Assembly: GCA_963662275.1 (NCBI GenBank)
Contig: OY759316.1
Coordinates: 1,856,001-1,920,000 of the forward strand
Origin: Candidatus Cloacimonadales bacterium
Lineage (GTDB): Bacteria; Cloacimonadota; Cloacimonadia; Cloacimonadales; DAONDQ01
Direction: 5' to 3'
DNA: 64,000 nt
The position numbers and the translations under genes are program-made. Under the pieces are notes generated by a model. The model worked only from the letters and a program-made list of their open reading frames with translations. It did not search any database and was not told where the DNA came from. Shown here in pieces: positions 3,180 through 36,566 of this stretch (position 1 is the stretch's first letter; every line of letters begins with the position of its first letter).

Positions 3180-3442
3180 TTCAACCTCCTTTTTAAATAA
3201 AATTATTAATCCGGAAATTGTGAATATGTGTCAAGAAAGTATTATTAAAAGGGAGATTAATTGTAAGATGATGTTCTTTCAAAGTTTTTCTATAGTGGAA
3301 GTAACATCAGATGTACAAACTTGTTTCCGTTATCCTGGAGTGTAATTTCTTTCATTGCACTTCCAGCTAAGTCTGTAGTCTGATTCACTTTTATTATAGC
3401 AATTCCTGCAATGCTTCGTTCGTTTTTTGTTGATATTCCTGT

Positions 3443-3594
3443 TATAAAGAGACACCTATAATTTCAAATAGGGACACTTAAAATTACCGAGATAACGCTT
3501 TGAGTGGTGGAGAGTTATAGCGGATATGTTTTGGACTGTTGCAGATGGACATTTGGACTGTTTTGGCATCATTTAGGACACGAAAACTGCAAAT
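3443..3594 (+). repeat. Left transposon end: terminal inverted repeat and putative transposase-binding sites
   Basis: TATAAAGAGACACCTATAATTTCAAATAGGGACAC (3443-3477); GGACACGAAAACTGCAAAT (3576-3594) is the exact reverse complement of 35447-35465. Confidence 0.8.
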
Positions 3595-4088
3595 TTGGAC
3601 TGGTTATGGACTGGTTTTGGACTTTGACATTTTTACGTAAAAAAGTGCTATTCTGGAAGCTCGCAATTGGTTTGATTTTACACCGATGAGCAGTTTGTCA
3701 GAAGTCTGAAGTCAGTCTAAATTAGGACGCCGAAAGTCCATAGTAAGAGGTTGTGGGATAATATCTTCCATTCTGTAGCCGATAATCGTATTCTTTGACT
3801 CGCTCCCAGTTTAGAGCCTGTTTTGAACTCTGCATTTCATTCTATTTCACCAACTGATTCAATACATATTACTGCGAATTTCTCTGCTTTTATCGCATAT
3901 TTCAATTTATACTTTATAGGATAGAGCCACCATCTTTTTCGGTGTGCAGATTGTTTCCAGAATGAGCGGAAAGCCCTTCCCAACATATTGCATACAAGGT
4001 AGTTAGCACCCTAACTAAAGTATATGTGAGGTGACTATGAACCCTGTAACGAACAGAAAAAACAAGAACAGAGACTGCCTCGAAAAAA

Positions 4089-4531
4089 ATGTCCATGTGC
4101 TGAAGCGGATGGACACACTTGGACACAAATCATGTCCAAGTGCTTCGAAAGTCTCTCTACGTAAGGCTTCGAGCCAAAATGTCCAAGCGCATCCAAGATT
4201 TATGTCCATGTGCTTCGCAAAATGTCCATCCGCTCCCTTGAACTTGGATGTTTTTATCATGGATGATATGACCAAGTTATTCTGGAAGCAAGGCAAAACT
4301 GGAGGTCAGCATGAGTGCTGATAACCTCGAACCCAAGCAGTCAGTCTTTGACAGTGTCGAAATAACCAGTTACCAATCAGACCATTACATCGTAAGAGAC
4401 AGGATTCTATCCAGACAGCAGATTGTAGGATCGACTGAAAAGAAGCTTTTCCCGATAGAATTAGAAGCCACTAAAACAGCCCAAAAGAAGACTAAAATCG
4501 AGTCGAAGCACTTGGACACGGATGGACATTT
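4089..4531. repeat. Cluster of about nine TGTCCA-core repeats (consensus roughly RTGTCCAWGTGCTTCG) in both orientations
   Basis: Forward copies at 4089, 4132, 4179, 4202, 4222; reverse copies at 4102-4116, 4117-4126, 4504-4519, 4519-4531. Confidence 0.7.
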
Positions 4532-6383
4532 TGAAAATGAAGATGTAAAGACTGTTTTTATAGATATGGTACCTTCTGAAAAGCTACCTTATACCCATGA
4601 TAAAGAAGCCAGATTATTCGGAGCTTTCTGCTCGGAAGTGTTAAATCGACTCGAATTATGTGACTCCAGAGTAGATGAGTGGAAACATATAGTGGATGGT
4701 TTCAACTCTGGTGGTTTTATGCCAGAGCTTTTCAAAATCAAGGGTAAACGCTCTGAGCGTTGCTTGAGACTGTGGTTAGAAAACTATACCCAGAGCAACT
4801 TTGATATGTATGCTCTTCTGCATAAACGCAAGAATGAGATCAGAGGTCGCAAGGTGACTATTGCCGAACAGAACTACCTGCTGAACTTATTACTCACACC
4901 TAAGCAGGTCAAGATCGGCTCTGCCATTTCACTTTTGAAACGCATGGATGCCCTGAAGCTGGTGGAATCACCCAGCAGCACCAAAACCCTCAAACGCTGG
5001 ATTATCGACTGGAGAGCCAACCATCCAGCTGAGTGGGCGCAAGCTACCAAGGGCAGTAAGTATGTCGCAGAGCATATAGTGAAGTCTATAATGAGAGATG
5101 CCAATCTGCTATCTGTCGGTAATGTCTGGGTAGCGGATGGACATACTCTGGCATTTGATATCTATAACCCGGTAACCGGGAAGACCCAGCGCATGACCCT
5201 GATTTTGATAATCGACTGGGCAAGCAGATATCCGGTGGGTGCTGCTCTGGCAGTTACCGAAGACAGCCAGCACATTTGCGCTGCGTTTAGAAATGGCTTT
5301 CTGAACTGGGGTGCTTTACTTGAGTATGTGTATCTGGATAATGGCAAAGCCTTCCGCTCCAAGCTGTTTAATGAGAAATGGGAAGACCATGACCTCTCGG
5401 TCGAACTGGGTGGCATCTTCCCCAGACTGGGCATCGGAGTATCCTTCGCACAGAAGTATAATGCCAGAAGTAAAATCATCGAACGCTTCTTCTTAACCAT
5501 GCAGGAGCAGTTCGAACGCTTTATCTCCACCTTTAGGGGTGCCTCAGTCGCAGACAAACCTGCTACTCTGATGCGGAACGAAGTCTGGGCTAAGAAGCTG
5601 TATGAAGGCACCGCACCCACAGTGGAAGAGACGATGCAGATGATTACTTTCTATATCCGGCACATTTATGGCGAGACACCGCACTCGGGAATCGGCAACA
5701 GAAAGCCGTATGAAGTATTCAGTCAGGCTGCTCTGCCGGAAGAGAGAATCATCACTGCCGACAAACTCAACTTCCTGATGCTATCCGCAGAACGCAAGCG
5801 GGTCAGGTCGGAAGGCATCAGACTGAATCACATGCTCTACTGGCACGATGCTCTGGTCGACCATATCGGCAAACCTGTCGTGATTAGATACGACCATGCC
5901 GATGCCAGATGGATACTCATCTTCACACAGCAGGATCAGTTCATCTGCCAGGCAGAACTACGAAGAGCGCAACACCCCTTTATCCACTTAGTCAAAGACG
6001 ACCCTATAGCTCATAAAGAACTTAGCCGGGAATATAACCAAATCAAAAAACTCCAACGCAAGACCGAGCAGAAGACCAAGCAAATCGTCAAACAAACGCA
6101 GGAAGCAGTCGACCGCTTAGTCAAACCCATCCCAGTGCAACTGCTGGAGCCTGATGGCAAGCTCTTCAATAAGACACCCATGATAGCTGCACCTATTGAT
6201 AACTTGGATATAGTAGCCTCGCATGTCTATGAGCAGATCGTGCCGAGAGTGGAAGAGCCACCCCGGATTATCACCAACCCATTTCCACAATATGTAGATA
6301 ACAGCCTGGATAATGAAGATGATGAACCGGTCTTAAAGCAAAAGACCTTCGCCGAGATGATGAAGATAGTCGGGATTAAATAA
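4311..6383 (+). CDS. Mu/TnsB-family DDE transposase
   Basis: 690 aa; DDE triad motifs WVADGH, YVYLDNGKAF, SKIIERFF; Mu-transposase-like C-terminal segment (GIRLNHMLYW...VVIRYD); GGAGG RBS upstream. Confidence 0.9.
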   Translation: MSADNLEPKQSVFDSVEITSYQSDHYIVRDRILSRQQIVGSTEKKLFPIELEATKTAQKKTKIESKHLDTDGHFENEDVKTVFIDMVPSEKLPYTHDKEARLFGAFCSEVLNRLELCDSRVDEWKHIVDGFNSGGFMPELFKIKGKRSERCLRLWLENYTQSNFDMYALLHKRKNEIRGRKVTIAEQNYLLNLLLTPKQVKIGSAISLLKRMDALKLVESPSSTKTLKRWIIDWRANHPAEWAQATKGSKYVAEHIVKSIMRDANLLSVGNVWVADGHTLAFDIYNPVTGKTQRMTLILIIDWASRYPVGAALAVTEDSQHICAAFRNGFLNWGALLEYVYLDNGKAFRSKLFNEKWEDHDLSVELGGIFPRLGIGVSFAQKYNARSKIIERFFLTMQEQFERFISTFRGASVADKPATLMRNEVWAKKLYEGTAPTVEETMQMITFYIRHIYGETPHSGIGNRKPYEVFSQAALPEERIITADKLNFLMLSAERKRVRSEGIRLNHMLYWHDALVDHIGKPVVIRYDHADARWILIFTQQDQFICQAELRRAQHPFIHLVKDDPIAHKELSREYNQIKKLQRKTEQKTKQIVKQTQEAVDRLVKPIPVQLLEPDGKLFNKTPMIAAPIDNLDIVASHVYEQIVPRVEEPPRIITNPFPQYVDNSLDNEDDEPVLKQKTFAEMMKIVGIK

Positions 6384-6393
6384 GGGAGCAAAC

Positions 6394-7107
6394 ATGTTAC
6401 AAGGAAAATTAGTCAAAACACGCAATGTTCTGGAAGCTGATAACTGCATCCAGTATCTTTTAGAGAGACCCAAGATGGAGATGGTGGGACTGGGACTGAT
6501 CTATGGCAAGCCTGGACTCGGCAAGACCACGTATGCCAGCCGGGTTGCCTTCAGTCGGGGCTATCTGTATCTCAGACTGGAAGCAACCACCACAGCCAAG
6601 TCCTTCGCTGCTGAGCTTCTGCTCGCACTCTATAAACGCTTTAACATGGGAGAGTTCCTGCCCTACGGCACAGCCAACGGACTGTTCAAGAAGTGCCTGG
6701 CTATCCTGGAAGACAATGCTGATACGATTATCGTCATAGATGAGATAGACTATGCCTTCCGGCATCCTCAACTCTTGGGAGCGATTAGGGATATCGTGGA
6801 TGAGACTCTGACTATTGTCCTGCTGGTGGGTATGCAGAATGCCAGAGACCGGCTCCTGCAAATCAATGAGTATTACTTCGATAGATGCAATTACTTCTAT
6901 GAGTTCACTCCTGTGACCCAGAGAGATACCAGACAGCTCTGCAAGGAACTGCTGGAGATACCTTTTGATAACGATGTCTCGGACTTCATCCACTTCCATA
7001 GCAGTGGCAACCTCAGAAAAGCCATGAAGATAATGTATGAGATGGATAACACCATCAAAAAGCATAGCCTGACCAGCATCACTCTCAAGGACATGGAAGC
7101 ACTATGA
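6394..7107 (+). CDS. Transposition AAA+ ATPase (MuB/TnsC/TniB-like)
   Basis: Walker A GKPGLGKT, Walker B IIVIDEID; 10 bp downstream of the transposase. Confidence 0.85.
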   Translation: MLQGKLVKTRNVLEADNCIQYLLERPKMEMVGLGLIYGKPGLGKTTYASRVAFSRGYLYLRLEATTTAKSFAAELLLALYKRFNMGEFLPYGTANGLFKKCLAILEDNADTIIVIDEIDYAFRHPQLLGAIRDIVDETLTIVLLVGMQNARDRLLQINEYYFDRCNYFYEFTPVTQRDTRQLCKELLEIPFDNDVSDFIHFHSSGNLRKAMKIMYEMDNTIKKHSLTSITLKDMEAL

Positions 7108-7673
7108 CCGAGACTGAACTGCTCACCAACTTTGTAAACCAGTACAGCAAACCCTTCACAGTGGATACGGCAGCCATGCTGACCGGGATAGCCAAAGATT
7201 CGGTCGCTCCCATCCTGAAAGAACTGGAAAAGCAGAAGCGGATTAATCGCATCTATGAGAAGCCAGAGGTGATTTATGTGCGTAATAACCGCTATAATAC
7301 CAGCCTGTGTGCCACCAATGACAAATGGAACCTTAACCTGTCGCAGGCGAATGAACTGCTCAACCTGCTGGAAAAGGGCAGATATACATCTCTGCGGGAT
7401 ATCGCAACAGAGATCGGCAGAAGCAGACAGTGGGTCTATATCTATCTGGAAGCTCTGGCATCCATCGAGTGCATTGACCTGCGTGGTTATGTGTATGTAG
7501 TCATCTCCCGCAAGAACCTGCCTAAACTCGGCACTAAGGTTACCAAGGGCATCTTGGGTGACTTGAGAAGTCTGAACCGGCTCGGTGGCTACCGGGACTT
7601 AAGAGAAAAACCTAAGAAAACAGATAAACAGAAACGCTCAGACTCAAAGCGAACCTATTTTATGATATTCTAA
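7104..7673 (+). CDS. Putative DNA-binding protein with two HTH-like segments
   Basis: ATGA overlap with the ATPase; HTH-like segments FTVDTAAMLTGIAKDSVAPILKELEK and TSLRDIATEIGRSRQWVYIYLEAL; basic C-terminal tail. Confidence 0.6.
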   Translation: MTETELLTNFVNQYSKPFTVDTAAMLTGIAKDSVAPILKELEKQKRINRIYEKPEVIYVRNNRYNTSLCATNDKWNLNLSQANELLNLLEKGRYTSLRDIATEIGRSRQWVYIYLEALASIECIDLRGYVYVVISRKNLPKLGTKVTKGILGDLRSLNRLGGYRDLREKPKKTDKQKRSDSKRTYFMIF

Positions 7674-7883
7674 ATGATCACGAGTTAAGCCATTTCTCAA
7701 CGTCTCATAAGTTTGAGTATTGCGCTTAATGTACATCTATCTAACTATTCACACAATTCATTACTATTAATCGAATCACACATTGGAAAGCTACTCGAGA
7801 AGTTGAACCGTCGCCATCCTAGCAATTTCTTATTGACTTTTCAATAGTATCAGCAGTATTTATTTCAGGAGATAAGATAAGTC

Positions 7884-10351
7884 ATGGATTCAGAAACAAA
7901 TAAAGAAAAACTCAAAGAAGAATTAGCAAAAAATCTTGAAGAGATAAGCGTTCTCAAAGAAACGAACTCCAGTCTTAAGGCTCAACTCGCAGAGTCAGGT
8001 TCACATTACGATTTAGTTTCTGAGTTACAGCTTGCAATTATGATGAAGAAAACGTCATACCTATAGACAGTGACTATATAATAAAGGATGCATCTCATTT
8101 TTATCAGGTAGATAACCAGTCCTACCCAATAGCGAAAGTCGCTTTATTTCGAAGTCTGTTCAAAGGTCGGGAGGATGTTTTTGCTATTCGTTGGTCTGGT
8201 AAAGATGGCAAATCAGGATATTCTCCTGCTTGTTCTAATGACTGGAAAACTGGAGTATGCGGGAAATTTAACAAAACCTCGTGCTCAAATTGTGACAACA
8301 GAGAATTGATACCCATTACTGATGAAGTAATCTTTCGACATCTCAATGGTGATTTCGTCATAGGTGTATATCCTTTAATGCCAGATGATACATGCTATTT
8401 CCTCGCTTTAGATTTTGATAAGAAAGAGTGGCAAACTGATGTATTAGCTTTTCATGAGACTTGCAATGAAATCGGTATTCCCGCTTATATAGAAAGATCA
8501 CGTTCAGGGAAAGGGGCACATGTTTGGATATTCTTTGAGCAATCCATTCCTGCTCGGATAGCAAGAAACTTGGGATGTGCTTTATTGACGGCAACTTTGG
8601 AGAAACGTCATCAGGTTGGATTGGATTCATATGACCGACTGTTTCCCAATCAGGACACAATGCCAAAGGGCGGGTTTGGGAATCTAATCGCTCTCCCGAT
8701 GCAAAAAGATGCTCGAAAACATAGCAATAGCATCTTTGTTAATGGACATTTACAGCCTTATGAAGACCAGTGGGCATTTCTATCAAAAATGATAAAACTC
8801 TCACTGGATAAGGTTAACCAGTTTATTGCATTGTTGACTAAGGAAAACTCACCCATTGGCAGCCTGAGGATTACTACCGATGAAGATACATTGCCTTGGG
8901 AACAAGTATTCAGAAATGAACCTGTGTTTAGTGATCTTCCATCTCAAGTTAATGTGTTCATTAGCAATATGATATTTATAGAGAAGGAAGGCTTACCTCA
9001 GAAACTAATAATCAGTATTATTCGGCTAGCCGCCTTTCTCAATCCCGATTATTACCGAACTCAGGCTTTGCGCCTCCCCTTATACAACAAACCCAGAATC
9101 ATAAATCTGTCAGTAGAAAGCACAAATCATATCGGTATTCCCCGAGGTTGCTTAGATGAACTGGTGAAGCTATTTGAGCAGTTAGAAATAGAGGCGATAA
9201 TACATGACAACACAAATCATGGTATTTCAAAGGATTTTGAGTTTGAGGGAAAGCTATATGATGAACAGTTAAATGCAGGAAAAGAACTGCTCTGTTACAA
9301 CAACGGCATATTATCCGCGTCGACTGCATTTGGCAAAACGGTGGTAGCTCTATGGTTGGTAGCTCAAAGGAAGACAAGCACATTGGTTATAGTTCATCGC
9401 AGGCAACTGCTCCAGCAATGGAAAGAACGCATTGCAAGTTTCTTGAACATTCCAATCAAAGATATTGGAGAGATAGGAGCAGGCAAAGACAAGCGAACTA
9501 TGAAAATCGATGTTGCTATCATTCAAAGCCTTTATCACGACAAAGAAGTGAAAGAATTTGTAAAAGAATACGGCATGGTTATCGTTGATGAGTGCCATCA
9601 TATCTCTGCATTTTCATTTGAACAGGTTCTCAAAGATGTTAAAGCTAAGTATGTCTATGGGCTTACTGCTACTCCAGTTAGAAAAGATGGTCAGCATCCT
9701 ATAGTCATTATGCAGTGCGGATCTATCAGAGTGAAGATTGATGCACGTAATCAGGCAAATTCCAGAGCTTTCAGTCATTCAGTAATCGTCAGGCATACAA
9801 CATTTCGATTGCCAGATAGTCTGGCTCGTATTGAACCTAAAATTACCGATATCTATCAGGCTTTAGTGGATGATAAAGAGCGAAATGATTTAATCATAGA
9901 TGATATTATAGCAGCGATTGAAGCTGGCAGAAGCCCTTTGATTCTCACTGAACGCATTGCTCATGTGGACTTCTTCATGGAGAAGCTGACAGGTTTTGCG
10001 AAAAACATCATTGTCCTCAAAGGTGGTATGGGCAGAAAGCAACTCAATGCAGTCATGGATAGACTTCACTCAATACCGGAGAATGAGGAAAGAGTGATTA
10101 TCGCCACCGGTAAATACATCGGTGAAGGCTTTGATGATAACAGACTGGATACTCTGTTTCTAACAATGCCAATCTCCTGGAAGGGCACTCTTCAACAATA
10201 TGCAGGCAGACTGAACAGAGTAAATGATTCAAAGACTGAGGTCATCATCTATGATTATGTGGATCGTGAAGTCCCGGTTTTGGCTGCAATGTATGCAAAA
10301 CGAGTCAAAGGCTATGCTTCGATAGGATACAGTATCACTGATAAGCAATGA
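7884..10351 (+). pseudogene. AEP-type primase domain (TOTE-associated type) fused to SF2 DEAD/ResIII-like helicase; apparent -1 frameshift near 8024-8066
   Basis: The frame of the 8306-10351 ORF is open from 8024 with no ATG and encodes conserved-looking LFRSLFKGREDVFA...GYSPAC upstream of 8306; the ORF 7884-8066 has an AGGAG RBS in another frame. AEP motifs LALDFD and RSGKGAHVW; helicase motifs TAFGKT, DECHH, TAT, QYAGR. Confidence 0.7.
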
Positions 10352-13300
10352 TCAATCAGCAGTCGACAAATATCTGCAGCCTATACCTGTAATAATACTA
10401 ACTCCACCTGCCTGTGGGATTACTTGGATTTGATTTGTGATACGTTCTTTGATTGCTGGAACATGTGATATGATGCCAATTAATTTCCCTTCATTGTTTA
10501 ATGCGGCAAGATTTTCCAGAGCTATTTCTAAGCTGTCTTCATCCAATGAACCAAATCCTTCATCCAAAAACAGAGAGTCGATCCTTACTTTCTGGCTGGA
10601 CATCGCTGATAAGCCGAGAGCAAGGGATAAGCTGACAATGAAGCTTTCGCCACCTGATAAATTCTTGATAGTTCGAATCTCTCCGCCTTGGTAATTGTCT
10701 ATAATATTCAGTTCCAAGGAATCACTTTCACTATTAATTAGAAGGTAGCGATCAGATAGTTTTTGTAGTTGAGCATTGGCATGAGCTATGAGCATTTCAA
10801 AAGTAATGCCCTGAACAAAACCGCGGTACTTCTTGCCATCAGCAGAGCCAATCAAATCGTTTAGCATTTCCCAACGGGTAAGCTGCGATTTTTGCAGGTT
10901 AATTTGGTGATATTGCTCAGCTTGTGCGGTTTTTTGTTTATTATCTTCTTTCAGTTGCGCCTCGATGGTGCCACTTTCACGGTTTAATTGACTCATTTGT
11001 TCCAAAAGGGTTGCGGAGTAACTTTTAAGCTCATGCATTTCGCTTGTGGTAAGCTGCCTGGCGGTTTCAGTTTGTAGCTTTGTGTTGTTGTCATCGATCA
11101 GGGATTGAAGCCTGTTCTTCTCCTGATTAAGTTGTTCATCTCTATGGTTTAGCTCTTCAAATGTTTTCAGCGGCAGGATGGCTGCTTCAAAATCCTGAAG
11201 CGTAGTAAAGCCAGTTTGGGTAATGGCAGTTATAAATCCTGCACTGCTTAGCGTGTGCTGCTTCGTTGTTTCGCTAAATTGCTTCTCGGTTTTTTGCATG
11301 TTTTCCATTGCTCCTTGCAGATCAGAAGTGCTGGTTCCAAGCTTTAATTGCAGAGAGTTCAGAGTGGATTTTTGTTTGTTTAACCGCGTTATCCAGTTTT
11401 GTTCTTCGCTTTGCACATCTTTATCACCAAAGAGCTGTTGCCTCAGTCCAACTTTATCTTTTATTTGGGCTTGCATTGCCTCTATCTTCTGCAATATAGT
11501 TGCTGTCTGGTTGAGGTGATCTTGTGCTGTGGATTGCTTGGTTAACAATATTGTTTTCTTCTGGTTTAGCTCTGCTTGAAGCAATGCTTCATTATCTTTG
11601 TGCTTCTTCCAGTGATCCCTGGCAGTTTCCAGCATGGAAATAAGAGCTTTAGGTTTATCCAGATCAACCAGTTTCACATTCTGGGTATTGAGTTTGTTTG
11701 CTATGATTTGCTTTTCGGCAAAGATTTTGTCTCCCAAGTTGTTAACGGACTCAAAGCACCGATTATACTCCTCAGTAATGGCTTGCATTTCATATTCGAG
11801 ACCGAGCTTTGCTTGCTGCAATGTAGAAAGGCTTTGTTTTTTCTGATTATGCTCCCGCTCCAACGCTATGATTTCTTTGCTTAGCTTTTCTCCTTTGGCG
11901 ATGATTGCAGCCAGTTTTTGATTTTCTGTGCGATTTGTGGAAATAAGTTTTTCAATCTTAAAAGCAGAAAGCTCGCTCAGGGATAGCTTGAGTTGTGCAC
12001 ATAAGGTTACCAGGCTCTGCCGATTCATGGTATCTTTCGTTTCATGATCCTGCAATAGTTGTTTTTGGAACTGCAGCCTTGTGCGAGTTTCTGTATGATT
12101 ATGTTCCTTGGCTTTCAGTTCCATCTGGAGCTTATTGTAAATGATGTTAAGTTCTTGCATGTCTTCAGCAAGAATATTCGGCACTGACGTTCCAGTATCG
12201 GCATAGGGATGATGCAGTGCTCCACAGAGGGGGCAGGCTTCATTGTCTTTCAGCAGCTTGCGTTCATCTTCCAGATTCACTTTTTTCTGTGAGAGTACTA
12301 ATATGGCGTTTTTATCCTCGAGGCTTTGCTCGGTGGATGCCAATTCTTTATTAAGCACAGTGATTTCACCGTCAAGCTGTATAATAAGTGCATTATCTGT
12401 GCTTATCTGTTTATTCGTAATACTTATAGCGCTTTGGCTTGAGGTATGGGCATTGTATAGGTTTTGCAGTTCAATGAGCTTATTGGCATAGTCGCTAATT
12501 TCTTGCAGATTATTGCGATAGTACGTGATATCATGTTCACATAATAGATCTTCCAGGGATGCTGTTAGGTCATTTTTGCTGATTTGAGTGACAGAGAGAG
12601 CGCTCTGCATGGCTTCCATCTGTAGGATAGTATTCTGTAGTTCGGTTGCCTTGGCTTTATTATCAGCAGCTATAAGTTTGATCTTGGCTTTGCCCTGCTC
12701 CTTTTCCATATCTACTAAGCGCTGGAATTGGTCTAAAAGCAGCGGAAGAGAGCCCTCAAGCTCTGCGTCCTGTGCGTGTTTTTCCTGATAATCGTGCACG
12801 GCTTTAAGATTTTGTTCTGCAGTATTTATTTCAGCTTCGAGACCACTGATTTCTGTGGCAATACCTTGGTATTTGGTTTCTAAATCCCTCTTATCGTCCT
12901 GCAGGGTTAAAAGGGCACTTTGTTGGGTCTGGATCAGAGTGTCCAATTCTCTTACCTGAAGGAAAATCTTCTGATTAGTGGTATCTTGCAATTCTGCTGC
13001 ATTTACCAGTTCTTGTTGCTGTTGTAACTCGAGGGTAACAGACCTGGTAAGGATTTCCAATGTGGTAGTCTTTTCTTGGTATCCCTCAAAATCAGACTTA
13101 AGCTCTTCAAGACGCTTAGCAAGAGATTTTACATTACTGTGCTCCCCCAAAAGAGGCTGAGTTTTACGGGCATTTTCCAGATGTAAACGCTGGGGGGCGA
13201 AATCCTTGATCTGATCCTGCAGTGCGCATAGATTTGTCTTGCTCTCGCTAATCTCTTGGTTTAGACGCAGCAAATTTTCTTTCCAGGAGATCAGAGCATT

Positions 13301-14029: not shown

Positions 14030-15264
14030 TTTGCTTCCTCCGCGTTGGGATCACTCTCTGATAGCATTTGCATAATTTCGTTATAGCAGTTTCGCAGTTC
14101 TAATGATTGAGGTTCATCAATCCCATGCTTTTGAAGGCAGCGTTCAAAAACTTGAATCGTACTGAGATCATCCAAACTCTCATTCAAAGCAGTAGCTGAA
14201 AGTGCCCTACGCATTATACGTTCATTTTTCAAACGTAAAAGCTCAACATCAGTACCAGAAATAATAGACTCAATATCTTCTTTGAGAGATGGTAGAATTT
14301 CATCGCCTGTATAGTAGACTTCAATCCAACATGGTTCACCTTGTTCAACAATCAAATTTAGCTCACTTAAAATTGCGTCCCAGTTACCTTCTATGCTCAA
14401 AAGTCTATTATTCTGTGGGATAGTAATCGGATTGACTGTGGTTTGGGTATCAGAAATATCAATAATTAGCACCTGTTTTTCGTGATCAGCTTCCTTAAAA
14501 CTTAGAGGAAGAGGTGAACCGCTATAACGCAGATTATCCCTACCTTTGATTATTTGCTGTGAATGCAAATGCCCCAATGCGACATAATTGATCTCTGCGG
14601 GGAAAAGGTCTGCCGGAACATACAACAGATTTCCAATATATAGCTCTCTGACTGCTTCCCCTTCTTGTAAGCAGCCTCCAGAAGCAAAGAGATGCCCCAA
14701 TGCAACGATCGGTGGATGGTTTTTGTCTTTTGCTTGAACATCAAACGCTATACTAAAGACATCTTGATAATGTTTAGTGATCCCTGCAAGTAACTTCTGT
14801 TCTTTTTGCTCAATGGATTCATAGGCTTCTATACTACGGATATCGCGTTCTCGGAGGTATGGTACCGCACAAACAATCAAAACACATTTGCCTTCTGCAT
14901 TCTTTATCAGCAAAACCTCATCCGAGGGATTTTCAGTCTTACTTCCTACAACGTGAATTCCCAAGTGCTTAAGCAACCCGCCAGGGGCATTTAAAAAAGT
15001 GGGAGAATCGTGATTGCCACCGATTATGACAATATTTTGACAAGAAGTTTGTTTCATCTGCCACAAGAACTCGTAATACAACTCTTGAGCCCTGCTTCCC
15101 GGCAACGCAGAATCAAACACATCACCAGATACCAAGAGCACTTCTATTTGCTCAGTATTAATTGTGCTAATTAACCAAGATAAGAACTCCCGCTGTTCTG
15201 CATAGCGTTTGTGTCCCATCAAACTGATACCCAGATGCCAATCAGATGTATGTAGAATTCTCAT
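14026..15264 (-). CDS. sbcD: SbcD/Mre11-like nuclease
   Basis: Phosphoesterase motifs HTSDWHLG, GDVFD, GNHD, LGHLH; 4-bp overlap with sbcC. Confidence 0.93.
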   Translation of the reverse strand: MRILHTSDWHLGISLMGHKRYAEQREFLSWLISTINTEQIEVLLVSGDVFDSALPGSRAQELYYEFLWQMKQTSCQNIVIIGGNHDSPTFLNAPGGLLKHLGIHVVGSKTENPSDEVLLIKNAEGKCVLIVCAVPYLRERDIRSIEAYESIEQKEQKLLAGITKHYQDVFSIAFDVQAKDKNHPPIVALGHLFASGGCLQEGEAVRELYIGNLLYVPADLFPAEINYVALGHLHSQQIIKGRDNLRYSGSPLPLSFKEADHEKQVLIIDISDTQTTVNPITIPQNNRLLSIEGNWDAILSELNLIVEQGEPCWIEVYYTGDEILPSLKEDIESIISGTDVELLRLKNERIMRRALSATALNESLDDLSTIQVFERCLQKHGIDEPQSLELRNCYNEIMQMLSESDPNAEEAK

Positions 15265-18693: not shown

Positions 18694-18698
18694 ATCAC

Positions 18699-22868: not shown

Positions 22869-22881
22869 GTTTACCCCTTGA

Positions 22882-25377: not shown

Positions 25378-25385
25378 TTTAGTTC

Positions 25386-28300: not shown

Positions 28301-28913
28301 AGTATTGATACAGCCAGCCAATGACTTCGACATCTTTGCAATTGTCTTGAGTCATAGCTTCGCAGATAATAGTCAGAATGGAATTACTACTCAGCAGGTC
28401 ATCCGGCATCAATAGCTCTGTCCAGTCCGCTATCCTTTCAAAGAGGAAAGGCATTATTAGGGCATAGTAGTTACAGGAAGCCATGATCAGGATACGGTAA
28501 GCTTCACTTTGAGGGTCTTCATGTTTTGCTGTTCCAGAAAGTAAATCATACACTTTTTGTTGGTTATCTTTGGTAACCATATCTTCATCGATATGACCCA
28601 TTTTAGCTTCTGCCAGTATCTCGGGCTGAGATTGACCCGGCAGAGGAGATAAAATACCTATCCGGGTATAACGGTTTACATCCATAAAACGCAAGGCACA
28701 GAAGCGGTTGAACCATGTATAGGCGACCTTGTCGATTAAGAGGTCTTTACTCTTAAGCCTTTTAAGCTCTTCTTCTAATGCCAGAACTTGTTTGGAATTG
28801 CGCCTTCTTTCATCACTCCCATCTGCCAATACTTTATCCAGCTTGATTCTAACCTGCTCCAGCAGATAACGACGTGCATACTTAGCAAAGCGTTCGAGTT
28901 TTGATGTATCCAT
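25386..28913 (-). CDS. pglX: BREX-1 adenine methyltransferase PglX
   Basis: AYTWFNRFCALRFM, ATQIFTPHWIV, SAM-binding DPCSGSGH, catalytic NPPY, C-terminal KRPIYW and IDLDDGVKVNY. Confidence 0.93.
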   Translation of the reverse strand: MDTSKLERFAKYARRYLLEQVRIKLDKVLADGSDERRRNSKQVLALEEELKRLKSKDLLIDKVAYTWFNRFCALRFMDVNRYTRIGILSPLPGQSQPEILAEAKMGHIDEDMVTKDNQQKVYDLLSGTAKHEDPQSEAYRILIMASCNYYALIMPFLFERIADWTELLMPDDLLSSNSILTIICEAMTQDNCKDVEVIGWLYQYYISEKKDEVFKDLSKNIKIKSEDIPSATQIFTPHWIVRFMVENSLGRLWILNHANSSLSENMRYYIKAEQSETAYHKINTPQEIRFCDPCSGSGHVLTYAFDLLYAMYEEDGFNLVEIPQLIIKNNLFGIEIDERAGELAAFALTMKARAKDKLWFNRKIEPNICVLASVSIAEDELDKYMRKIGYDVFSAKLETTLKQFTETNTYGSLIVPADTNVVETYNMLIDNNEIVNDTEYYGTHKAVVKILRQADYLNSKYHIVVTNPPYMGSKGMNNTLSDFAKTNYPLAKSDLFAMFIQRCLELVLDRGFCALVTMQSWMFLSSYEKLRSHLLDNYTIECMVHMDNMVMGIAFGTSATVWQKFLNPNFKGSYSYLSCQDLDENNTPKEFPVKNSRLAVASSSDFINIPGTPIAYWVSERVRSIYANSDKVSDIANVVCGMTTGDNDQFLRLWFEVSHAKTGFGYTCKNDAILSKNKWFPYNKGGSFRKWFGNNEYVINWGNDGYDVITNGRAFARSQNFYYKESITWSFVSSSYFGVRVSDPGFLFDMGGCSAFLKKADYQLVLSAYLCSKLVFNFLKILNPTLNFQVGNVGSLPWLESKIIVNKRNIDHLSNLLLNVSKQDWDSFETSWNFTRSPLLMMLNLDQMSVKEVYFDLRKQWIDNTIEMHCLEEENNGIFIEAYGLQNEFSPDVPLKEITLTCNPYYRYSKEANQEFKEEFPLNEKLEADLLSDTMKEYISYALGCMLGRYSIDKPGLILANQGETIDDYLKQVPNPSFIPDKDNVIPILDGEWFTDDIVERFKEFLKVTFGYSNFSQNLQFIEEAIGKDLRSYFLKDFYNDHIKRYKKRPIYWLFSSPKDSFNALIYMHRYTPDTASIILNDYLREFVVKLNAKKADLEHQIISSSTCQRDKIIAGKELEKITATILELENWERNVIFNLAAAKIEIDLDDGVKVNYAKFGTALKKIPGLDKSEE

Positions 28914-28926
28914 ATTTTCTGCCCCT

Positions 28927-30090
28927 TTAATCCTGACCTAAGGCTTCATGCATTTGATCTTTAATGAATTTCTGAATCTCTTCAGGCTTGGGAAGTTCAA
29001 GCAGGTATTGCGAAACAAAGAGTTGGTTATCCATGCCTGCTAAGGCATATTCGACTAAGATGTCATCTTTTTCGGTGCAGAGCAGTATCCCGATGGGGGC
29101 ATTATCTCCATCAATAATTATATTCTTGCGATACCAACTTACGTATGTATTCAGTTGTCCAATATGCTCGTGATTAAATTCGGACAGCTTGAGTTCAACT
29201 AAGATATGGCATTTCAGGATACGGTGATAAAAGACCAAATCAATAAAATATTGGGTATTACCGATTAAAATTCGCTTTTGTCTGGATTCGAAACAAAAAC
29301 CATGTCCCAGTTCAAGTAGAAAGTCCTGTAGTTTATCCAGCAGTTGGTCTTCAAGATGAGATTCGCTCATAACTTCCCGAGGCTTCAGACCAAGGAACTC
29401 AAATACATAAGGGTCTTTCACTGTAAGGGCAGGGTTGTATAGGTCAGCATTTTGCTTACTTTGTTTTGCTAATTCACTTTTATCTATCGAGAGTCCTGTA
29501 CGCTCATAGTATAGAGAAGCAATCTGACGGCGAAGCTGCCTCACAGACCAGTTTCCCCTGATGCATTCAAACTCATAAAAAGATCGTTTTAGAGTGTCCT
29601 CAATATTCAAAAATTCACTGATATGCGAAAAAGACAACTTAGTAACCAATTGCCTTACATCAATCTGTAATTGTGGAGACACTGTCTCCACAATCAGACT
29701 TGCGTGCTTTTCGATCAGTGACAATTGATTATTTACATACCCGGTTGTATCAGAGATGTTGATTTGGGCGAGCAATTGTGGAGACAGCGTCTCCACAATT
29801 TGAGGATAAGTCTTAAAAAATTGGTAATAACGGTAAAGCTCACGTTTATCCGTGCGGAGTACCATCTGAGATTTTAGTTCAACGGCAAGACGCTCTATTA
29901 GTTTCTCGCCATATTCTGCCCGGTCTGTGCCTTTAATCTCAAATTCAGCTATATAATACCCTATTAACCAATTCCTGAGTGTAAGTGCTACATTTACAGA
30001 TTGAGTAGCCTGATGTTTTAGATCATTATGAATCGTCTGTATCGCAGTAACAAGAGCTGTAAAAGTCAGTTCAGAAGTATTTGTTTGCAT
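28927..30090 (-). CDS. YhcG/DUF1016 PD-(D/E)XK nuclease-domain protein
   Basis: RNWLIGYYI, WSVRQLRRQI, KDPYVFEFLGL, FLLELGHGF, IDLVFYHRILKCHILVELK, PIGILLC. Confidence 0.9.
   Translation of the reverse strand: MQTNTSELTFTALVTAIQTIHNDLKHQATQSVNVALTLRNWLIGYYIAEFEIKGTDRAEYGEKLIERLAVELKSQMVLRTDKRELYRYYQFFKTYPQIVETLSPQLLAQINISDTTGYVNNQLSLIEKHASLIVETVSPQLQIDVRQLVTKLSFSHISEFLNIEDTLKRSFYEFECIRGNWSVRQLRRQIASLYYERTGLSIDKSELAKQSKQNADLYNPALTVKDPYVFEFLGLKPREVMSESHLEDQLLDKLQDFLLELGHGFCFESRQKRILIGNTQYFIDLVFYHRILKCHILVELKLSEFNHEHIGQLNTYVSWYRKNIIIDGDNAPIGILLCTEKDDILVEYALAGMDNQLFVSQYLLELPKPEEIQKFIKDQMHEALGQD
29670..29800. repeat. Two near-identical DNA palindromes inside the yhcG-like gene
   Basis: ATTGTGGAGACA-C-TGTCTCCACAAT (29670-29694) and AATTGTGGAGAC-AGC-GTCTCCACAATT (29774-29800). 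Confidence 0.9.
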
Positions 30091-30098
30091 ACCTTACC

Positions 30099-33000
30099 CT
30101 ACAATTTAATGCTATTGCCGTCATTGATTGCGTCAAGATAAGCTTTCTTGACCGCTTCGATATACTGATTCAACTCTTCTATATTATTGATATCTGTCTT
30201 GTGATATGCTATTGGAATATCAATTCTATCGATTCTTTTACTTTTTTCCTTTACCACATCATTAATAGGTTCTTTGGAACCCTTTAATTGTATCAAGATT
30301 AGAGGATAATCAACTTCTTCAAACCTACGGATCAAATCCTTGATTACGGCTATTATTGTTGCAGATGAGATGCTGGTTTGTACGGATAGGATGGTGCTAT
30401 CAATAGAGGCTTTAATCTCATCAGATGCTACTTGAAATTGCTCAGACGTTGTTATCTCTTCTGACCTGTGAGTTAAAGCATTCAAAGCTTTATTCTTTTC
30501 CGTTTCAACTATCCTGCTGAGTTTATCCTGCAAAATATCAAGCAGTGGTTTCAACTGCTGCATCCGATTACCTTTGTAGCACTCAGAATCTGTGAAACCA
30601 CTCTTGAGTCGATTAATGTCGTCATGATTCAAGTAGGCAAGATTTGACTCCTGCTCACTCAGGAACATTCTGATTGAATCATAAATGCTCTTTTGATTGC
30701 CGGACATGAAGGCTAATATCGGGTCAATGATCTCTGCCTTGATTTGCACAAACTCATCATCATGTTTAACGAAATCAGAATAAAACCAATTGTAGGGTTT
30801 ACCTTTGGCTTCTTTGAATCTCTCTGTAATGGGAGCTAAGTCTTGCGTAAAAGAATAGATTGCTTTCTGCTGAATTAGCTTCTCCAGCTTTTCTGTATGC
30901 TGTGCAAGTGTCTCACCTGTTTCTTTGGCAAGAGCCTTGACATCATTACCGGATGGAGGAGCGTCAAAGAGATTATTGTATAGGTCTTTTAATCTGCGTA
31001 CCTGAGAAGGAGTATATTCCTGCTGAGGTTGCAGAATCATACTTGAATGTTTGGCAGTGTTCTTGAGAGCTTTATCGAGCAAGCTGTTTTCTAAAAGCAC
31101 TCCATCGGCATAGACTTCCACTTTGCCGTTTGAGTAAAGCTTGGCAATCTGGCACAAAATAGCATAGAAACCCCATCCATAGGGCTTGTGACTAAACTTA
31201 TCCATTACATCATTCAAAGTGGTGCGTTTGGCGATTCGGCTATTTGCTGTGATGTGAGAAAAAACTTCCTGCTCAGCTTCAGTTAATTGAGCTGCATAAT
31301 CTGCCGTTATTTGACTGGTATCCAGATACCTAATGATATCTTGTTCAGAATATGATACTCCCTTAAGCATCCTTAAATTGGGATATACTTTGCTGACTAC
31401 TGTTTGAAACCCTTGCACAATACGGGTATTGGCATCCTTAACATCGATATCAAGTGCATCTCCACCTGCATAGAGCTTTGCTTCTATAATCAGCTCTGTT
31501 AATCTGGTTTTGATAATCAGTGCTCTATCTTTATTCTGGTGCTGTTTCTCAGATAGAATCTTCCGGGTGGATTCGTTTTGCATCGATGAATAGGTTTGTT
31601 GGAAGCATTTCTCGGTTTTGATATACATTCCCAAGTCATCCCAAAATCTCTTATCAGCAGGTATGACTACAGTGAGTTCAGGTTTTCCCAATGAATGAGC
31701 TATTAGCTGCTTATCATTTTCCAAGTCATAGAACTCATAAGACGGAGTAACAACATGAATAGTAATTTCGTGTTCTTTCCCAGATTGCTTATAGTCAATC
31801 CTCCGGGTAAACTGGAAATCCTGCTTGTTCTCTTCATAGCGGATTTTAAGAGATTTCACAATCTGTCCACTCGAGAAAAGCACTTTATCAAGCTCATCAA
31901 ACAAAGCCATGTTATCAATCTGAGTATTCTTTATCTCCTGTTCCACGTTCTTTTCTTCATTGGTCAAAAACTCATATAGCTCTCCATTCCTTTGAATGTA
32001 GGTTTGAGTTTCCAAGAGGATCAGTGCTTCATCTATCTGCTTTCTCAGCTCATTGATATCAGTTTCAAAGCTATCCAGAAGCAAGATACTTACATTGCGG
32101 ACTGTAGCTTTAAAATCTTTAACATACTTAAGCATGAAGAGGATTTTAAGAACTCGAGTGGCAAATACGTTTCCGAGGTTATTCTCGGCATTAATGATGG
32201 CACCCTGAATCTGGCTTTTAATTGAAGATCGTATTCCATCGAACATCAAATCGAAGGTGGCGACATTACCTATTTCTGATTGCACGATAGATTTAACCAC
32301 GTGTTGGAATACACCCAGCATAGAGCGTTCACCAACCGAACTATGGGTTCCTTCAAATGCTTGGTTCAAGGATAGCGATTTGATAGCTTTTTGAAACAAG
32401 GAAAACTGATAGGGGATAAAGGGATAGCAATAGATAAAATCTTCTTTATTATTGAAATTCCTAAAGGTCTGGGCTCCATCCACAAAATGAAACATGGTCT
32501 TAAAATTATTCACGTGCAAATGATAAAGCTCTGACAGCAGATCAATGGATTCATCCTTTTTCTGCAATAGTCTTTTTTGAATCACCTCTCCCACATTGGC
32601 ACTGGTAAGGCTCAGACGAGTAGCAAACCGGGCTTGTATTTTGGAGAAATCATTGCCCTGATGCTTATTGAGTTCACCGAGAACAGCATCTAAATCTTCC
32701 TGTGAAGTGACAACCACCCAAGCTCGCCCTTTGCATATCGTTGCCAGGCTTTCCGCTATAGTTTGGAGGTTCAGCATCAGCTTGGTATTTTCTGCGATGT
32801 ATTGCCCGACCTCATCCACAAAGAAATTCAGCCTAAAGTCTTTATCCTGAGTTTTAATGTAATCAAAGACCTGGATGGCAAAGTCTTCAATCGACACTCT
32901 ATAATCTTCTCTATATTTATCCAGAATGTTTTTTAAGTTGTTTGCCTCACTACCTGTCACTTTAGTAAAAGCCAACGAGATGTTATGGGATTCAAAGATA

Positions 33001-33584
33001 GATTCTTCTCTGCCAATCGACCAGTCTTTACCTGAGATGGTTTTATAAGTATCTTGAAATGATTGGTATATACCTTTTTTATCGAGATCTCTTTCAAACT
33101 TGGCAATATAGCCTTGCTTGCCATAATATCCGCAGAATTCATCAAACACCTTAATAAAGACCGATAACAAAGCATCAGTCTGAGTTTTAGCTACGATATC
33201 TGCTTTCTGGTCGATGTTAAAGAGAATACTCTTAGATGGTATAGCAACCGCTTTTTTAAGATCGGCACATAATATCACATCACCTTTGCACTTATCAGTA
33301 AAAGTAGTCAATATCGAGAAATCATCTTCAGTCCAGTTTTGTAACAATAAAGACAGCATTTTTAGAAGGTGGGATTTACCTGAACCAAAGAAACCAGATA
33401 TCCATACACCATTGGATGCTTCTTTACTCAGATAAGCATCTAAAAATGACCCAAGTTTAGTGCTTACTTCATCAGTAACTACATATTCTTCTACTTCTCG
33501 TTTCAGATTGCTGTTATCATCGGCTTTGATAACACCTTCAATGGGACGGTCTACTGCTTTGAGGAAAATATCATTAATCTTCAT
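30099..33584 (-). CDS. brxC: BREX P-loop ATPase BrxC
   Basis: RPIEGVIKAD, EEYVVT, GVWISGFFGSGKSH, FFVDEVGQYI, YPFIPYQF, GERSML. Confidence 0.93.
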   Translation of the reverse strand: MKINDIFLKAVDRPIEGVIKADDNSNLKREVEEYVVTDEVSTKLGSFLDAYLSKEASNGVWISGFFGSGKSHLLKMLSLLLQNWTEDDFSILTTFTDKCKGDVILCADLKKAVAIPSKSILFNIDQKADIVAKTQTDALLSVFIKVFDEFCGYYGKQGYIAKFERDLDKKGIYQSFQDTYKTISGKDWSIGREESIFESHNISLAFTKVTGSEANNLKNILDKYREDYRVSIEDFAIQVFDYIKTQDKDFRLNFFVDEVGQYIAENTKLMLNLQTIAESLATICKGRAWVVVTSQEDLDAVLGELNKHQGNDFSKIQARFATRLSLTSANVGEVIQKRLLQKKDESIDLLSELYHLHVNNFKTMFHFVDGAQTFRNFNNKEDFIYCYPFIPYQFSLFQKAIKSLSLNQAFEGTHSSVGERSMLGVFQHVVKSIVQSEIGNVATFDLMFDGIRSSIKSQIQGAIINAENNLGNVFATRVLKILFMLKYVKDFKATVRNVSILLLDSFETDINELRKQIDEALILLETQTYIQRNGELYEFLTNEEKNVEQEIKNTQIDNMALFDELDKVLFSSGQIVKSLKIRYEENKQDFQFTRRIDYKQSGKEHEITIHVVTPSYEFYDLENDKQLIAHSLGKPELTVVIPADKRFWDDLGMYIKTEKCFQQTYSSMQNESTRKILSEKQHQNKDRALIIKTRLTELIIEAKLYAGGDALDIDVKDANTRIVQGFQTVVSKVYPNLRMLKGVSYSEQDIIRYLDTSQITADYAAQLTEAEQEVFSHITANSRIAKRTTLNDVMDKFSHKPYGWGFYAILCQIAKLYSNGKVEVYADGVLLENSLLDKALKNTAKHSSMILQPQQEYTPSQVRRLKDLYNNLFDAPPSGNDVKALAKETGETLAQHTEKLEKLIQQKAIYSFTQDLAPITERFKEAKGKPYNWFYSDFVKHDDEFVQIKAEIIDPILAFMSGNQKSIYDSIRMFLSEQESNLAYLNHDDINRLKSGFTDSECYKGNRMQQLKPLLDILQDKLSRIVETEKNKALNALTHRSEEITTSEQFQVASDEIKASIDSTILSVQTSISSATIIAVIKDLIRRFEEVDYPLILIQLKGSKEPINDVVKEKSKRIDRIDIPIAYHKTDINNIEELNQYIEAVKKAYLDAINDGNSIKL

Positions 33585-33599
33585 TTATGCCCTCTTTAA

Positions 33600-34208
33600 T
33601 CAGATTTGGCAGTGATAGATATTAAAGGCTCGATAATATTTATCGTCTAATTTACTGAACAGTTTCAGAGTTGAACCACTTAGATTATTGGCATTATACT
33701 CACCGGGAAAGAAGAAAACTGTTGGTTTATCCTTTGCGACTTTTTGCAGATTATTCAGGATGTTGTGAGATCGGATATAAGGGAATACTTCTCCTATACC
33801 TGTGATAAACATGATCTGGAATTCTCCGGTAAGCATCTTTTCTGCAATAGCCGGAATAAGGTATTTCTCAGTAGCTAATACGCTTTCAAAGTGCTCAAAC
33901 AAGGTTTCCTTCGGGAAAGTTGCTTCTGACTCAATGATTTTCTCTAACAGACCCCTTTTTGCTAAGAGTTCTAAGGTTAATCTGTATAAATTGATTTCGA
34001 GTATAGTAATCGTCTGCTGACCAAGCTGGGTTATCAGTTGTCCTATTGCCCGATACATTTCGTGGGTTTCTTCCACTTTAAAAGGGCAAATAAAGAAGGG
34101 GACTTCGTTACCCAAACCTTCCTTATTGAGGAATCTGGAACTGCTCATCAATTTGAGCAAGTGGTCAAACCTATCTCGCATTTTTGATGTTTCTAATGTG
34201 TTTTGCAT
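33600..34208 (-). CDS. brxB: BREX protein BrxB (DUF1788)
   Basis: GLGNEVPFFI, GIGEVFPYIRSH, FFPGEY, YYRAFNI; position between brxA and brxC. Confidence 0.9.
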   Translation of the reverse strand: MQNTLETSKMRDRFDHLLKLMSSSRFLNKEGLGNEVPFFICPFKVEETHEMYRAIGQLITQLGQQTITILEINLYRLTLELLAKRGLLEKIIESEATFPKETLFEHFESVLATEKYLIPAIAEKMLTGEFQIMFITGIGEVFPYIRSHNILNNLQKVAKDKPTVFFFPGEYNANNLSGSTLKLFSKLDDKYYRAFNIYHCQI

Positions 34209-34217
34209 AACTAATGT

Positions 34218-34808
34218 TTATCTTTGTTGGGGGTATATAGTTAGTGGTACAGCACTATCAGCGTTTAAAATCTGCTGAACATGCTGAGCTACCATAATGG
34301 GTTTAATTGTGTTCTCAATTGTTAATATACCGGCATCTCTGAGCATTTTAAATAAGTTCTTGGTAAGCTTGTTCTTGGATTGTGATGAGATAGTATTGAG
34401 TTCATCATGCTGGATTGCTTTATTATTGTAGAATATGTTAAAATCGGCATCGCTCAGTTCATTGTCATAATTTGACATCTTATACCCGATTACATCTATG
34501 GCAAAATCTCTTATAAAGTGGTATTTCTTACATATAGCATACCAGATGACCTGAACCTGCTCATCTCTGTTTCCATTGGCAATCATAGAAAGGGCTTCAT
34601 CACTTATCAGTTTAATCCTGGTATAGGTTTCTGAATAGATTCTTCTCTGAGCAGCAAGTGTTCTGATTTGAAGTAAATTGTGCTCAAGCACCTGTTTTCT
34701 CACAGCATCCCAATCTTTCGTTTCAATATAGAGTTTAGCTAATAATACTGAATCCCGATAGAGAAGTGCTCCCGCAGTAAATCCTAAATTATACTTTGGT
34801 TCAGTCAT
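34218..34808 (-). CDS. brxA: BREX protein BrxA (DUF1819)
   Basis: Likely start MTEPKYNLGFTAGALL at 34808; NLLQIRT and KMLRDAGIL motifs; operon position. Confidence 0.85.
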   Translation of the reverse strand: MTEPKYNLGFTAGALLYRDSVLLAKLYIETKDWDAVRKQVLEHNLLQIRTLAAQRRIYSETYTRIKLISDEALSMIANGNRDEQVQVIWYAICKKYHFIRDFAIDVIGYKMSNYDNELSDADFNIFYNNKAIQHDELNTISSQSKNKLTKNLFKMLRDAGILTIENTIKPIMVAQHVQQILNADSAVPLTIYPQQR

Positions 34809-35001
34809 TGGTTGAACCCTCTGAACCATCCTTTATAGAATGGGCTTTAACCCATTGATCAATATCCTCTTTCTTGAACTTCCACAGTCTGCCAATCTTG
34901 TGAGCGGGAAGCTTCTTTTCACTGAGCCATTTATAGACTGTGTCTCTTGTCACTCCAAGGTATTGACTAATTTCTTCAACGGATAACCACCTGTCTTCCA
35001 T
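34801..35001 (-). CDS. Excisionase-family HTH DNA-binding protein
   Basis: MEDRWLSVEEISQYLGVTRDTVYKWL...LPAHKIGRLWKF; GGGAG RBS; overlaps the brxA start. Confidence 0.88.
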   Translation of the reverse strand: MEDRWLSVEEISQYLGVTRDTVYKWLSEKKLPAHKIGRLWKFKKEDIDQWVKAHSIKDGSEGSTND

Positions 35002-35089
35002 TTGGTGCTCCCTTCTTATAAATCGATGGGTATCTTGAATTCTGATGTAAATCAGATACTAATAAACAAGGACAAAACAGAATAAAAGC

Positions 35090-35117
35090 ACTGTATTCAA
35101 GTAGTGTTTTATGTCAA
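35090..35117 (-). promoter_or_regulatory. Candidate sigma70 promoter of the BREX operon
   Basis: Minus-strand TTGACA (35117-35112), 16-bp spacer, TACAGT (35095-35090). Confidence 0.4.
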
Positions 35118-35446
35118 AGAATTTCTCTTTTTCGGTACAAGTCTATGTCCTTCAATATGGTTCAAATTGTTTAGATTCTCTCAGAACCCCTTTTGGGACA
35201 TTGATACAGATATACGAGATTTCAAATTGATGTTTTTTGTAGTCTACCGATCACTTCTGTTATGTGATGTATCGCTTCATTATTCTCAGATTACTTAGAA
35301 CTATGGATTATTCAAATTACCAATAAACTCGTCTCACCAAGGGCAACCATTTAATACAGCTAAAATCATCTTTGAAAAACACAGACGAGTAAATCTCAGT
35401 TTGCTATCCAATTGCCATCAGAGAAGTTATGAAATCACAAAAAGCC

Positions 35447-35610
35447 ATTTGCAGTTTTCGTGTCCCAATATGAAATTTTGGTGTCCTTATTTGAAATTTT
35501 CGTGTCCCTTTTTGCAGTTCTTATGTCACTTTCTAAAGCCAGATGAATGCCGATTTGATGCGATATGAAATTTTCGTGTCCTTATTTGAAATTCTAAGTG
35601 TCCCTTTATT
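35447..35610 (-). repeat. Right transposon end: array of GTGTCC-core putative transposase-binding sites and terminal inverted repeat
   Basis: GTGTCC at 35460, 35481, 35502 (21-bp period), a degenerate copy at 35523, then 35576 and 35598; several are followed by TATTTGAAATT-like sequence. Confidence 0.85.
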
Positions 35611-35645
35611 CCTGTCCAGGTTCTAGCTGCATTTTATCTTTCTAT

Positions 35646-36504: not shown

Positions 36505-36566
36505 AATATCAATAAAAGAGGTATTAAACAAAAAGTAAGCATAAAAGAAGGAAAAACTAAAAAAGT

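Follow-up and report, generated by a model that had tools for sequence, protein, structure and literature searches.

Defence islands ride on Tn7-like transposons, phages, and satellites. Tn5053, with TniQ, a resolvase, and a res site, makes a 5-bp target-site duplication (TSD), the TSD of Tn552, which also encodes a resolvase, is 6-7 bp long, and mini-Mu can be packaged by a helper. BREX systems were found on 40 Tn7-like transposons, where defence cargo is well described (Benler et al. 2021, PMC8649781), and a survey of TnsC homologues assigns the MuB clade to phages (PMC10293859). The present analysis concerns a window of 64,000 nucleotides from a Candidatus Cloacimonadales bacterium (contig OY759316.1 of assembly GCA_963662275.1, positions 1,856,001-1,920,000 of the forward strand), in which positions 3443-35610 (32,168 bp) are very probably a complete, phage-less member of a Cloacimonadota family of Mu-like transposable elements. 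Together with metagenome locus L090, locus L091, and elements G040a and G040b of another genome, the window element forms a lineage best read as a cargo transposon of long standing, which either descends from transposable phages or is their sister, and the cargo of this lineage changes faster than its core.

The left end of the element, from 3443, reads TATAAAGAGACACCTATAATTTCAAATAGGGACAC, and the right end, with its last base at 35610, reads AATAAAGGGACACTTAGAATTTCAAATAAGGACAC as reverse complement. By a position-by-position count by hand, the two are identical at 30 of 35 positions. CCTGT stands directly outside each end, at 3438-3442 on the left and at 35611-35615 on the right, and both the end match and the flanking CCTGT agree in coordinates and count with the original prediction, which had been made from the letters of this DNA alone. 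The two copies are part of a 9-bp direct repeat, TATTCCTGT, at 3434-3442 and 35607-35615.

Each end contains an array of repeats of about 22 bp, and the arrangement is asymmetric. The left terminus (3443-3486, forward strand) consists of two adjoining 22-bp transposase-site units, L1 (core GACAC at 3451-3455) and L2 (core at 3473-3477), and is followed by an internal site, L3, AGGACACGAAAACTGC (3569-3590, forward strand). The right terminus (35567-35610, reverse strand) consists of units R2 and R1 and has a deviant terminal base pair (reverse complement AATAAAGG), while three internal right sites, R5, R4, and R3, lie inward of it with a 21-bp spacing (35451-35514, reverse strand; cores GTGTC at 35460, 35481, and 35502). 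The site core RGGACACNWA occurs eight times in the window as compared with 1.43 expected, a count that none of 100 shuffles reached, and seven of the eight matches are located no more than 165 bp from the element ends and are oriented inward. Between L2 and L3 there are a conserved box, GCTTT-nnnn-GGTGG-n-GAG, and TTTGGAC(T) repeats; in the window, this left-end cis region (3497-3625, forward strand) comprises the box GCTTTGAGTGGTGGAGAG together with several TTGGACTG-like repeats in a row, which are exact at 3531, 3553, and 3595. The left-end 230 nt, box and TTTGGAC repeats included, are colinear in 15 elements, phage and phage-less alike, and the box and repeats could be an enhancer, an operator, or a packaging signal.

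A lone inverted repeat with 30 of 35 matches in 64 kb of AT-rich DNA is, as a rough estimate, weakly significant, and taken by itself it would agree with inverted ends and a flanking repeat that arose by chance and delimit no discrete element. It is the context that makes the element call decisive: the site cores are enriched at both ends, the gene of a Mu-type transposase starts 868 bp inward of the left end, and in metagenome locus L090, whose transposase is 97% identical, an unrelated flank gives way to the same left end exactly at the equivalent of base 3443. With homologous ends and 5-bp TSDs in nine other elements as well, a chance match is extremely improbable and was rejected. The flank of L090 differs right before the base equivalent to 3443, which confirms this boundary and excludes the alternative left start at 3440 (TGTT) that the original prediction had offered.

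Both ends were located for nine other elements (G041, G042, G040a, G040b, G121a, G003a, G003b, G127b, and G104a). An unambiguous 5-bp TSD is present in all nine, and hence in all ten complete elements when the window is included, and all ten TSDs are different. The distance from the terminus to the first site core is 8 nt in each of the nine, as in the window, and this constant spacing rules out a TSD of 7 or 9 bp. The collection of independent insertions, which had been proposed as a way to fix the TSD length, therefore gives 5 bp and the symmetric register without exception, and it sets the register of the two CCTGT copies in the window; the prediction of a 32-kb Mu-type cargo transposon with exact ends is borne out by the same nine elements. 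A scan for a TSD plus repeat did not locate the ends of three further relatives (G063a, G067a, and G127a), the right end of L090 is absent from the 10 kb downstream that were examined, and an exact degenerate pattern for both window ends had no match in the viral contigs and none in the metagenome contigs. An end candidate in G048a (16/24) was too weak to be counted.

The longer repeat around the window element appears to be peculiar to this insertion. The direct repeat exceeds 5 bp by 4 bases in the window, as compared with 0 or 1 base in each of the nine further elements; the 9-bp repeat is therefore taken as a local coincidence, and the suggestion that the family prefers targets resembling its own ends is not sustained. 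Mu itself has the target preference N-Y-S-R-N. Among the ten complete elements, a small sample, TSD position 4 is a purine in all ten and position 2 a pyrimidine in six, and the purine at position 4 is compatible with a Mu-like preference of this kind.

The terminal bases of the family can be read from the 20 ends of the ten complete elements, of which 16 begin with TA, two with TG, one with TT, and one with AA. Eight further left ends, whose right ends were not seen, start with TA (five) or TG (three). The normal terminus of the family is thus 5'-TA (3'-...TA) with TG as a minority, and the first T is almost invariant, since it is present in 19 of the 20 ends. The window element begins with TA on the left and AA on the right, the latter giving ...TT-3', and differs from the 5'-TG...CA-3' of Mu-like elements. 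The non-TG/CA termini that had been noted at first sight are therefore real and typical of the family. They are not unprecedented, and the idea of an end chemistry new to this element does not stand: in Leptospira, 28 of 74 complete transposable prophages have TA at each end with a 6-bp repeat, and the other 46 are TG-CA (PMC8705779). Nor is the ...TT right terminus a feature of the family, since the window right end is the single deviant from a first T. This right junction is unchanged, with 0 differences, in contigs of two sequencing runs (X18, record 13, and X21, record 20), which may include the source sample; within that scope, the deviant base is not an assembly slip. In work on Mu ends, the terminal A:T pair is reportedly more critical than the neighbouring pair. 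This would fit a second base that is free to vary, and it suggests that the window copy may be impaired by its right-end A.

Next to the left end is a module of three genes. The first (4311-6383, forward strand) encodes a MuA-type DDE transposase of 690 aa with matches to Mu-transpos_C (PF09299, 4.9e-18), rve (7.2e-6), and phrog_310 (5.9e-74), and alignment with the motifs of ShCAST TnsB gives D276, D343, and E391 as candidate catalytic residues. Directly downstream is the gene of a MuB-like AAA+ ATPase of 237 aa (6394-7107, forward strand), which matches phrog_296, ‘DNA transposition protein’ (6.4e-23), AAA_22 (2.7e-13), and, weakly, TniB. The third gene of this conserved A-B-wHTH trio (7104-7673, forward strand) encodes a winged-helix (wHTH) protein of 189 aa with a weak TrmB match; its Atlas neighbours are generic wHTH regulators, and a sequence search of the PDB gave no match. 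A gene of 163-218 aa occupies the same position in L023, G236, G040a, G121a, and G063a, and wHTH-type Pfam matches were obtained in the L023 homologue only. The reading frames of all three genes are intact in the window. An open reading frame (ORF) of 96 aa at 4031-4321 was not counted as a gene on account of its odd composition and lack of a family match.

Some of these matches raise the possibility that the element is a Tn7-like or Tn5053/Tn402 member, i.e. a transposon that pairs TnsB/TniA with TnsC/TniB and makes a 5-bp TSD. When the PDB was searched by sequence, the transposase matched only ShCAST TnsB (6e-7) and the ATPase gave generic AAA+ matches only; the weak TniB match points in the same direction, as do the 5-bp TSD and the subterminal site arrays, which are also found in Tn7, Tn5053, and Tn552 (PMC8649781). 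However, the Pfam scan, which covered 22 ORFs (18 within the element), gave no match to the TnsA, TniQ/TnsD, resolvase, or integrase families. The ends are TA and not TGT/ACA, the two core proteins are much better matched by phage Mu-type PHROGs, and prophages with complete virion modules are among the nearest relatives. Membership in either group is therefore very unlikely.

Of 8,000 candidates that were scored against the transposase, at least 405 are relatives at E<=1e-10, and the source names among the matches listed are metagenome-assembled genomes of Cloacimonadota. At E<=1e-50, transposase matches are present in 78 of 232 genomes of the phylum, often in several copies. IMG/VR classes three relatives, at a transposase identity of 59-60%, as proviruses; one of them, G236, has a terminase large subunit, a MuF-like head protein, a portal, a protease or capsid, an endolysin, and a tape measure. 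Terminase matches also lie inside G003a, G003b, G127b, and G104a, which are all about 34 kb long, and a comparison by hand showed that in 15 of the 29 loci L042-L070 the transposase is followed downstream, at about 5 kb and without a change of contig or strand, by a terminase match. These virion genes indicate that the family includes genuine Mu-like transposable phages. In L023 and G063a, an S24 repressor gene and a small helix-turn-helix (HTH) gene upstream of A complete the Mu-like layout. A single prophage accounts for both G003a and G003b, two insertions in the same genome with the TSDs GTGAA and AGAGA, and this is direct evidence that mobility occurs in the family.

Other members of the family are phage-less and differ in size and cargo. 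G040a (28,986 bp, about 65% transposase identity) carries A, B, and wHTH genes, BREX type I, and the same PrimPol-helicase as the window element, and has no virion genes; G040b (33,350 bp) has the core and right end of G040a with a different middle cargo. Both are in a host of another bacterial family, at 64-66% transposase identity and with a TSD of their own each, and there is no terminase match in this genome. G121a (10,177 bp) carries two secreted proteins, G063a has a PglZ/DUF6079 system behind a full repressor-HTH-A-B-wHTH module, and L090 carries a Type ISP restriction enzyme and has no terminase within 8.7 kb of the trio. The annotation of G041 and G042 covered their first 10 kb. At E<=1e-20, 29 of the 78 transposase-positive genomes are without a terminase match by hand comparison, and for 12 of them the completeness is at least 97%. 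A quick maximum-likelihood tree, built from 42 transposases with approximate likelihood-ratio test support only and with the careful search unfinished, places the window, L090, and L091 in one fully supported clade near G040a and G001. On this tree, the phage-less relatives (G040a, G040b, G121a, G063a, and L090) fall into at least three clades, and the phage-less label requires at least three changes.

The cargo of the window element begins behind the transposition module with a gene for a TOTE-type AEP (PrimPol) fused to an SF2 helicase (7881-10351, forward strand), which has a frameshift near 8024-8066 and its longest ORF at 8306-10351. The remaining cargo genes are on the reverse strand. 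An SbcC-like (1225 aa) and SbcD-like (412 aa) pair occupies 10352-15264, and a region at 15395-19967 contains a BrxHI-type helicase (15395-17509) and two BrxD-like ATPases (17506-18693 and 18699-19967). The first of these BrxD-like genes matches only the N-terminal third of BrxD profiles (residues 3-135) and may be a diverged or partial duplicate. After a 275-aa ORF with no family match (19964-20791), a BREX type I cluster (20781-34829) has genes for BrxL, PglZ, PglX, a DUF1016/YhcG nuclease, BrxC, BrxB, and BrxA. The DUF1016/YhcG PD-(D/E)xK nuclease (PADLOC PDC-S02, 28927-30090) is inserted between brxC and pglX. Since brxA, brxB, brxC, pglX, pglZ, and brxL are all in one cluster with strong Pfam and PADLOC matches, the cargo includes a predicted complete BREX type I system. 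Every ORF scanned in the element belongs to the core or to defence, the cargo consists of defence and DNA-conflict genes alone, and no virion, packaging, or lysis gene is among the ORFs. The Pfam and PADLOC matches, to BREX type I, BrxD/BrxHI, an SbcCD-like pair, and the PrimPol-helicase, thus uphold the original prediction of a whole defence island as cargo.

The PrimPol-helicase is 92% identical to an intact protein of 820 aa in G040a. In G040a and G040b, its gene adjoins the right end on the opposite strand, and the window cargo is therefore inverted relative to that of G040a. An identity of 92% across hosts of different families, as compared with about 65% for the transposases, points to a recent horizontal exchange of cargo.

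The insertion is intergenic, between two divergent genes and 263 bp upstream of a large surface-protein gene, and there is no tRNA gene in window positions 1-40000. The search for an empty site gave no match to the left-flank DNA in 40 relatives and none to the right-flank protein in the same-genus genome G001; the left-flank protein had paralogue-like matches only, without synteny. In run X1, contigs that are roughly 93-98% identical to the window, by our own reading of the differences per piece, extend only up to 35463, and among the loose ends listed for the runs none is at 35610 or 35615. Just to the right of the element, a small dispersed repeat at 36548-36614 reaches about 16 times the neighbouring contig depth in X18 and is marked by numerous loose ends in three runs. 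Elsewhere in the genome of the window (G000), a solo right-end-like sequence, TATAAAAAGACAC..., at G000:C1:1505208-1505390 (positions 1478-1660 of locus L008, outside the window) closely resembles the right end of G040a. No partner end with a matching 5-bp duplication was found within 80 kb of it, and it is probably a remnant of another element. The same genome also contains, at G000:C1:1527439-1543172, a distant trio of an A-like gene (784 aa, 22% identity) and genes of 237 and 190 aa, with a terminase match 12 kb away, which is probably a second transposable prophage and a possible helper.

Several observations weigh against a complete and mobile phage-less transposon in the window. Its right end has a terminal A in place of the T found at 19 of 20 family ends, a frameshift splits the PrimPol-helicase gene, and the element carries no repressor or Ner-like gene. 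It is single-copy in its own genome, an empty site or a second junction was seen neither in the genomes of relatives nor in the contigs of the sequencing runs, and its transposition is inferred from genomic scars. The sequence search of the PDB did not return MuA itself, the tree is a quick one, and five of its ‘no terminase’ labels were given because no terminase was seen on a contig or in a genome. The deviant terminal base, the frameshifted TOTE gene, the single copy, and the lack of a repressor gene would each fit a decayed remnant of one Mu-like prophage whose late genes were replaced by host defence genes and which became fixed in place, with no self-sustaining lineage behind it; the solo right end in the same genome shows that such decay occurs. 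However, A, B, and wHTH have retained intact frames, and the element still has both end arrays and a perfect TSD. In L090, the same core (97% identity) occupies another site and carries other cargo, and the same phage-less layout persists in a further bacterial family, in G040a and G040b (64-66% transposase identity), which have a separate TSD each. A decayed remnant is therefore quite unlikely, and a phage-less element with ends and core of its own is preferred.

By analogy with the biochemistry of Mu and Tn7, the transposase of such an element would assemble on the end-site arrays, and would cleave so that a 3'-OH is exposed at a distance of 8 nt outward of the terminal site core. Both ends would then be joined to target phosphates with a 5-bp stagger, and the ATPase would capture or choose the target and confer target immunity. 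As there is neither TnsA nor a resolvase, simple insertions would be expected to arise through nick, join, and repair in the manner of Mu, or through replicative transposition followed by recombination.

One could further propose that the phage-less elements are natural mini-Mu satellites, which, during replication of a related transposable phage in a shared cell, transpose and are packaged by headful in the capsids of that phage, and which spread BREX and other defence islands between bacterial families. Such satellites would explain why a 92%-identical PrimPol-helicase is found on elements with transposases of about 65% identity. All of the left-end cis elements of the phages, including the GCTTT-GGTGG-GAG box and the TTTGGAC repeats, have been kept, and a packaging or enhancer signal may be among them. 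The elements have also kept their own A and B genes, and the second, distant Mu-like prophage of the same genome could act as helper. Nevertheless, this proposal is considered unlikely, and the phage-less elements are regarded here as cargo transposons.

No description of a Mu-type A/B module as a pure cargo transposon was found in the full-text literature covered, from which subscription journals fall outside. Within one transposable-phage family, phage-less lineages appear to have arisen several times, with BREX, PglZ systems, a Type ISP restriction enzyme, and others as cargo. The family may thus provide a natural series for the change from virus to transposon, for the end bases that are truly needed by a MuA-type enzyme (T first, second base free), and for the movement of defence systems in an uncultured phylum that is common in anaerobic digesters. 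In addition, the A-B pair with TA ends is a compact candidate tool.

In comparison with known systems, the element is most readily set beside Mu and other transposable phages (saltoviruses). It has an A (DDE, Mu_C) and B (AAA+) pair next to the left end, several transposase sites per end in an asymmetric arrangement, a 5-bp TSD, and many different insertion sites in its family, and among its close relatives in the phylum there are real prophages about 34 kb in length. Unlike Mu, the window lineage is without virion, lysis, packaging, repressor, and Ner-like genes, the termini of the family are TA as compared with the TG/CA of Mu, and the phage-less elements carry defence cargo at sizes of 10-33 kb. 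The Leptospira TA-TA prophages are likewise Mu-like with TA at both termini; however, they are 38-40 kb long, complete as prophages, and flanked by a 6-bp duplication, whereas the window element has a 5-bp duplication and no phage genes (PMC8705779). Engineered mini-Mu, which has Mu ends and the A and B genes without the phage late genes and still transposes (PMC8705779), is similar in its content, but it is a laboratory construct, whereas the elements described here are natural lineages with defence cargo.

With the Tn7-like transposons that carry defence cargo, the element shares a transposase of the TnsB/MuA superfamily with an AAA+ regulator, subterminal site arrays, a 5-bp TSD, and defence cargo including BREX (PMC8649781). 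It differs from them in that no TnsA, TniQ/TnsD selector, or attachment-site targeting was matched, in its ten different targets across the family, in its non-TGT ends, and in its phage Mu-type core proteins. A transposase with an ATPase and end site arrays is also found in Tn5053/Tn402 and Tn552 (PMC8649781), from which the window element is distinguished by having no TniQ or resolvase Pfam match. Overall, the element resembles Mu; TnsA, TniQ, the resolvase, and the end sequence separate it from the Tn7-like and Tn5053 groups, and the virion genes separate it from the transposable phages.

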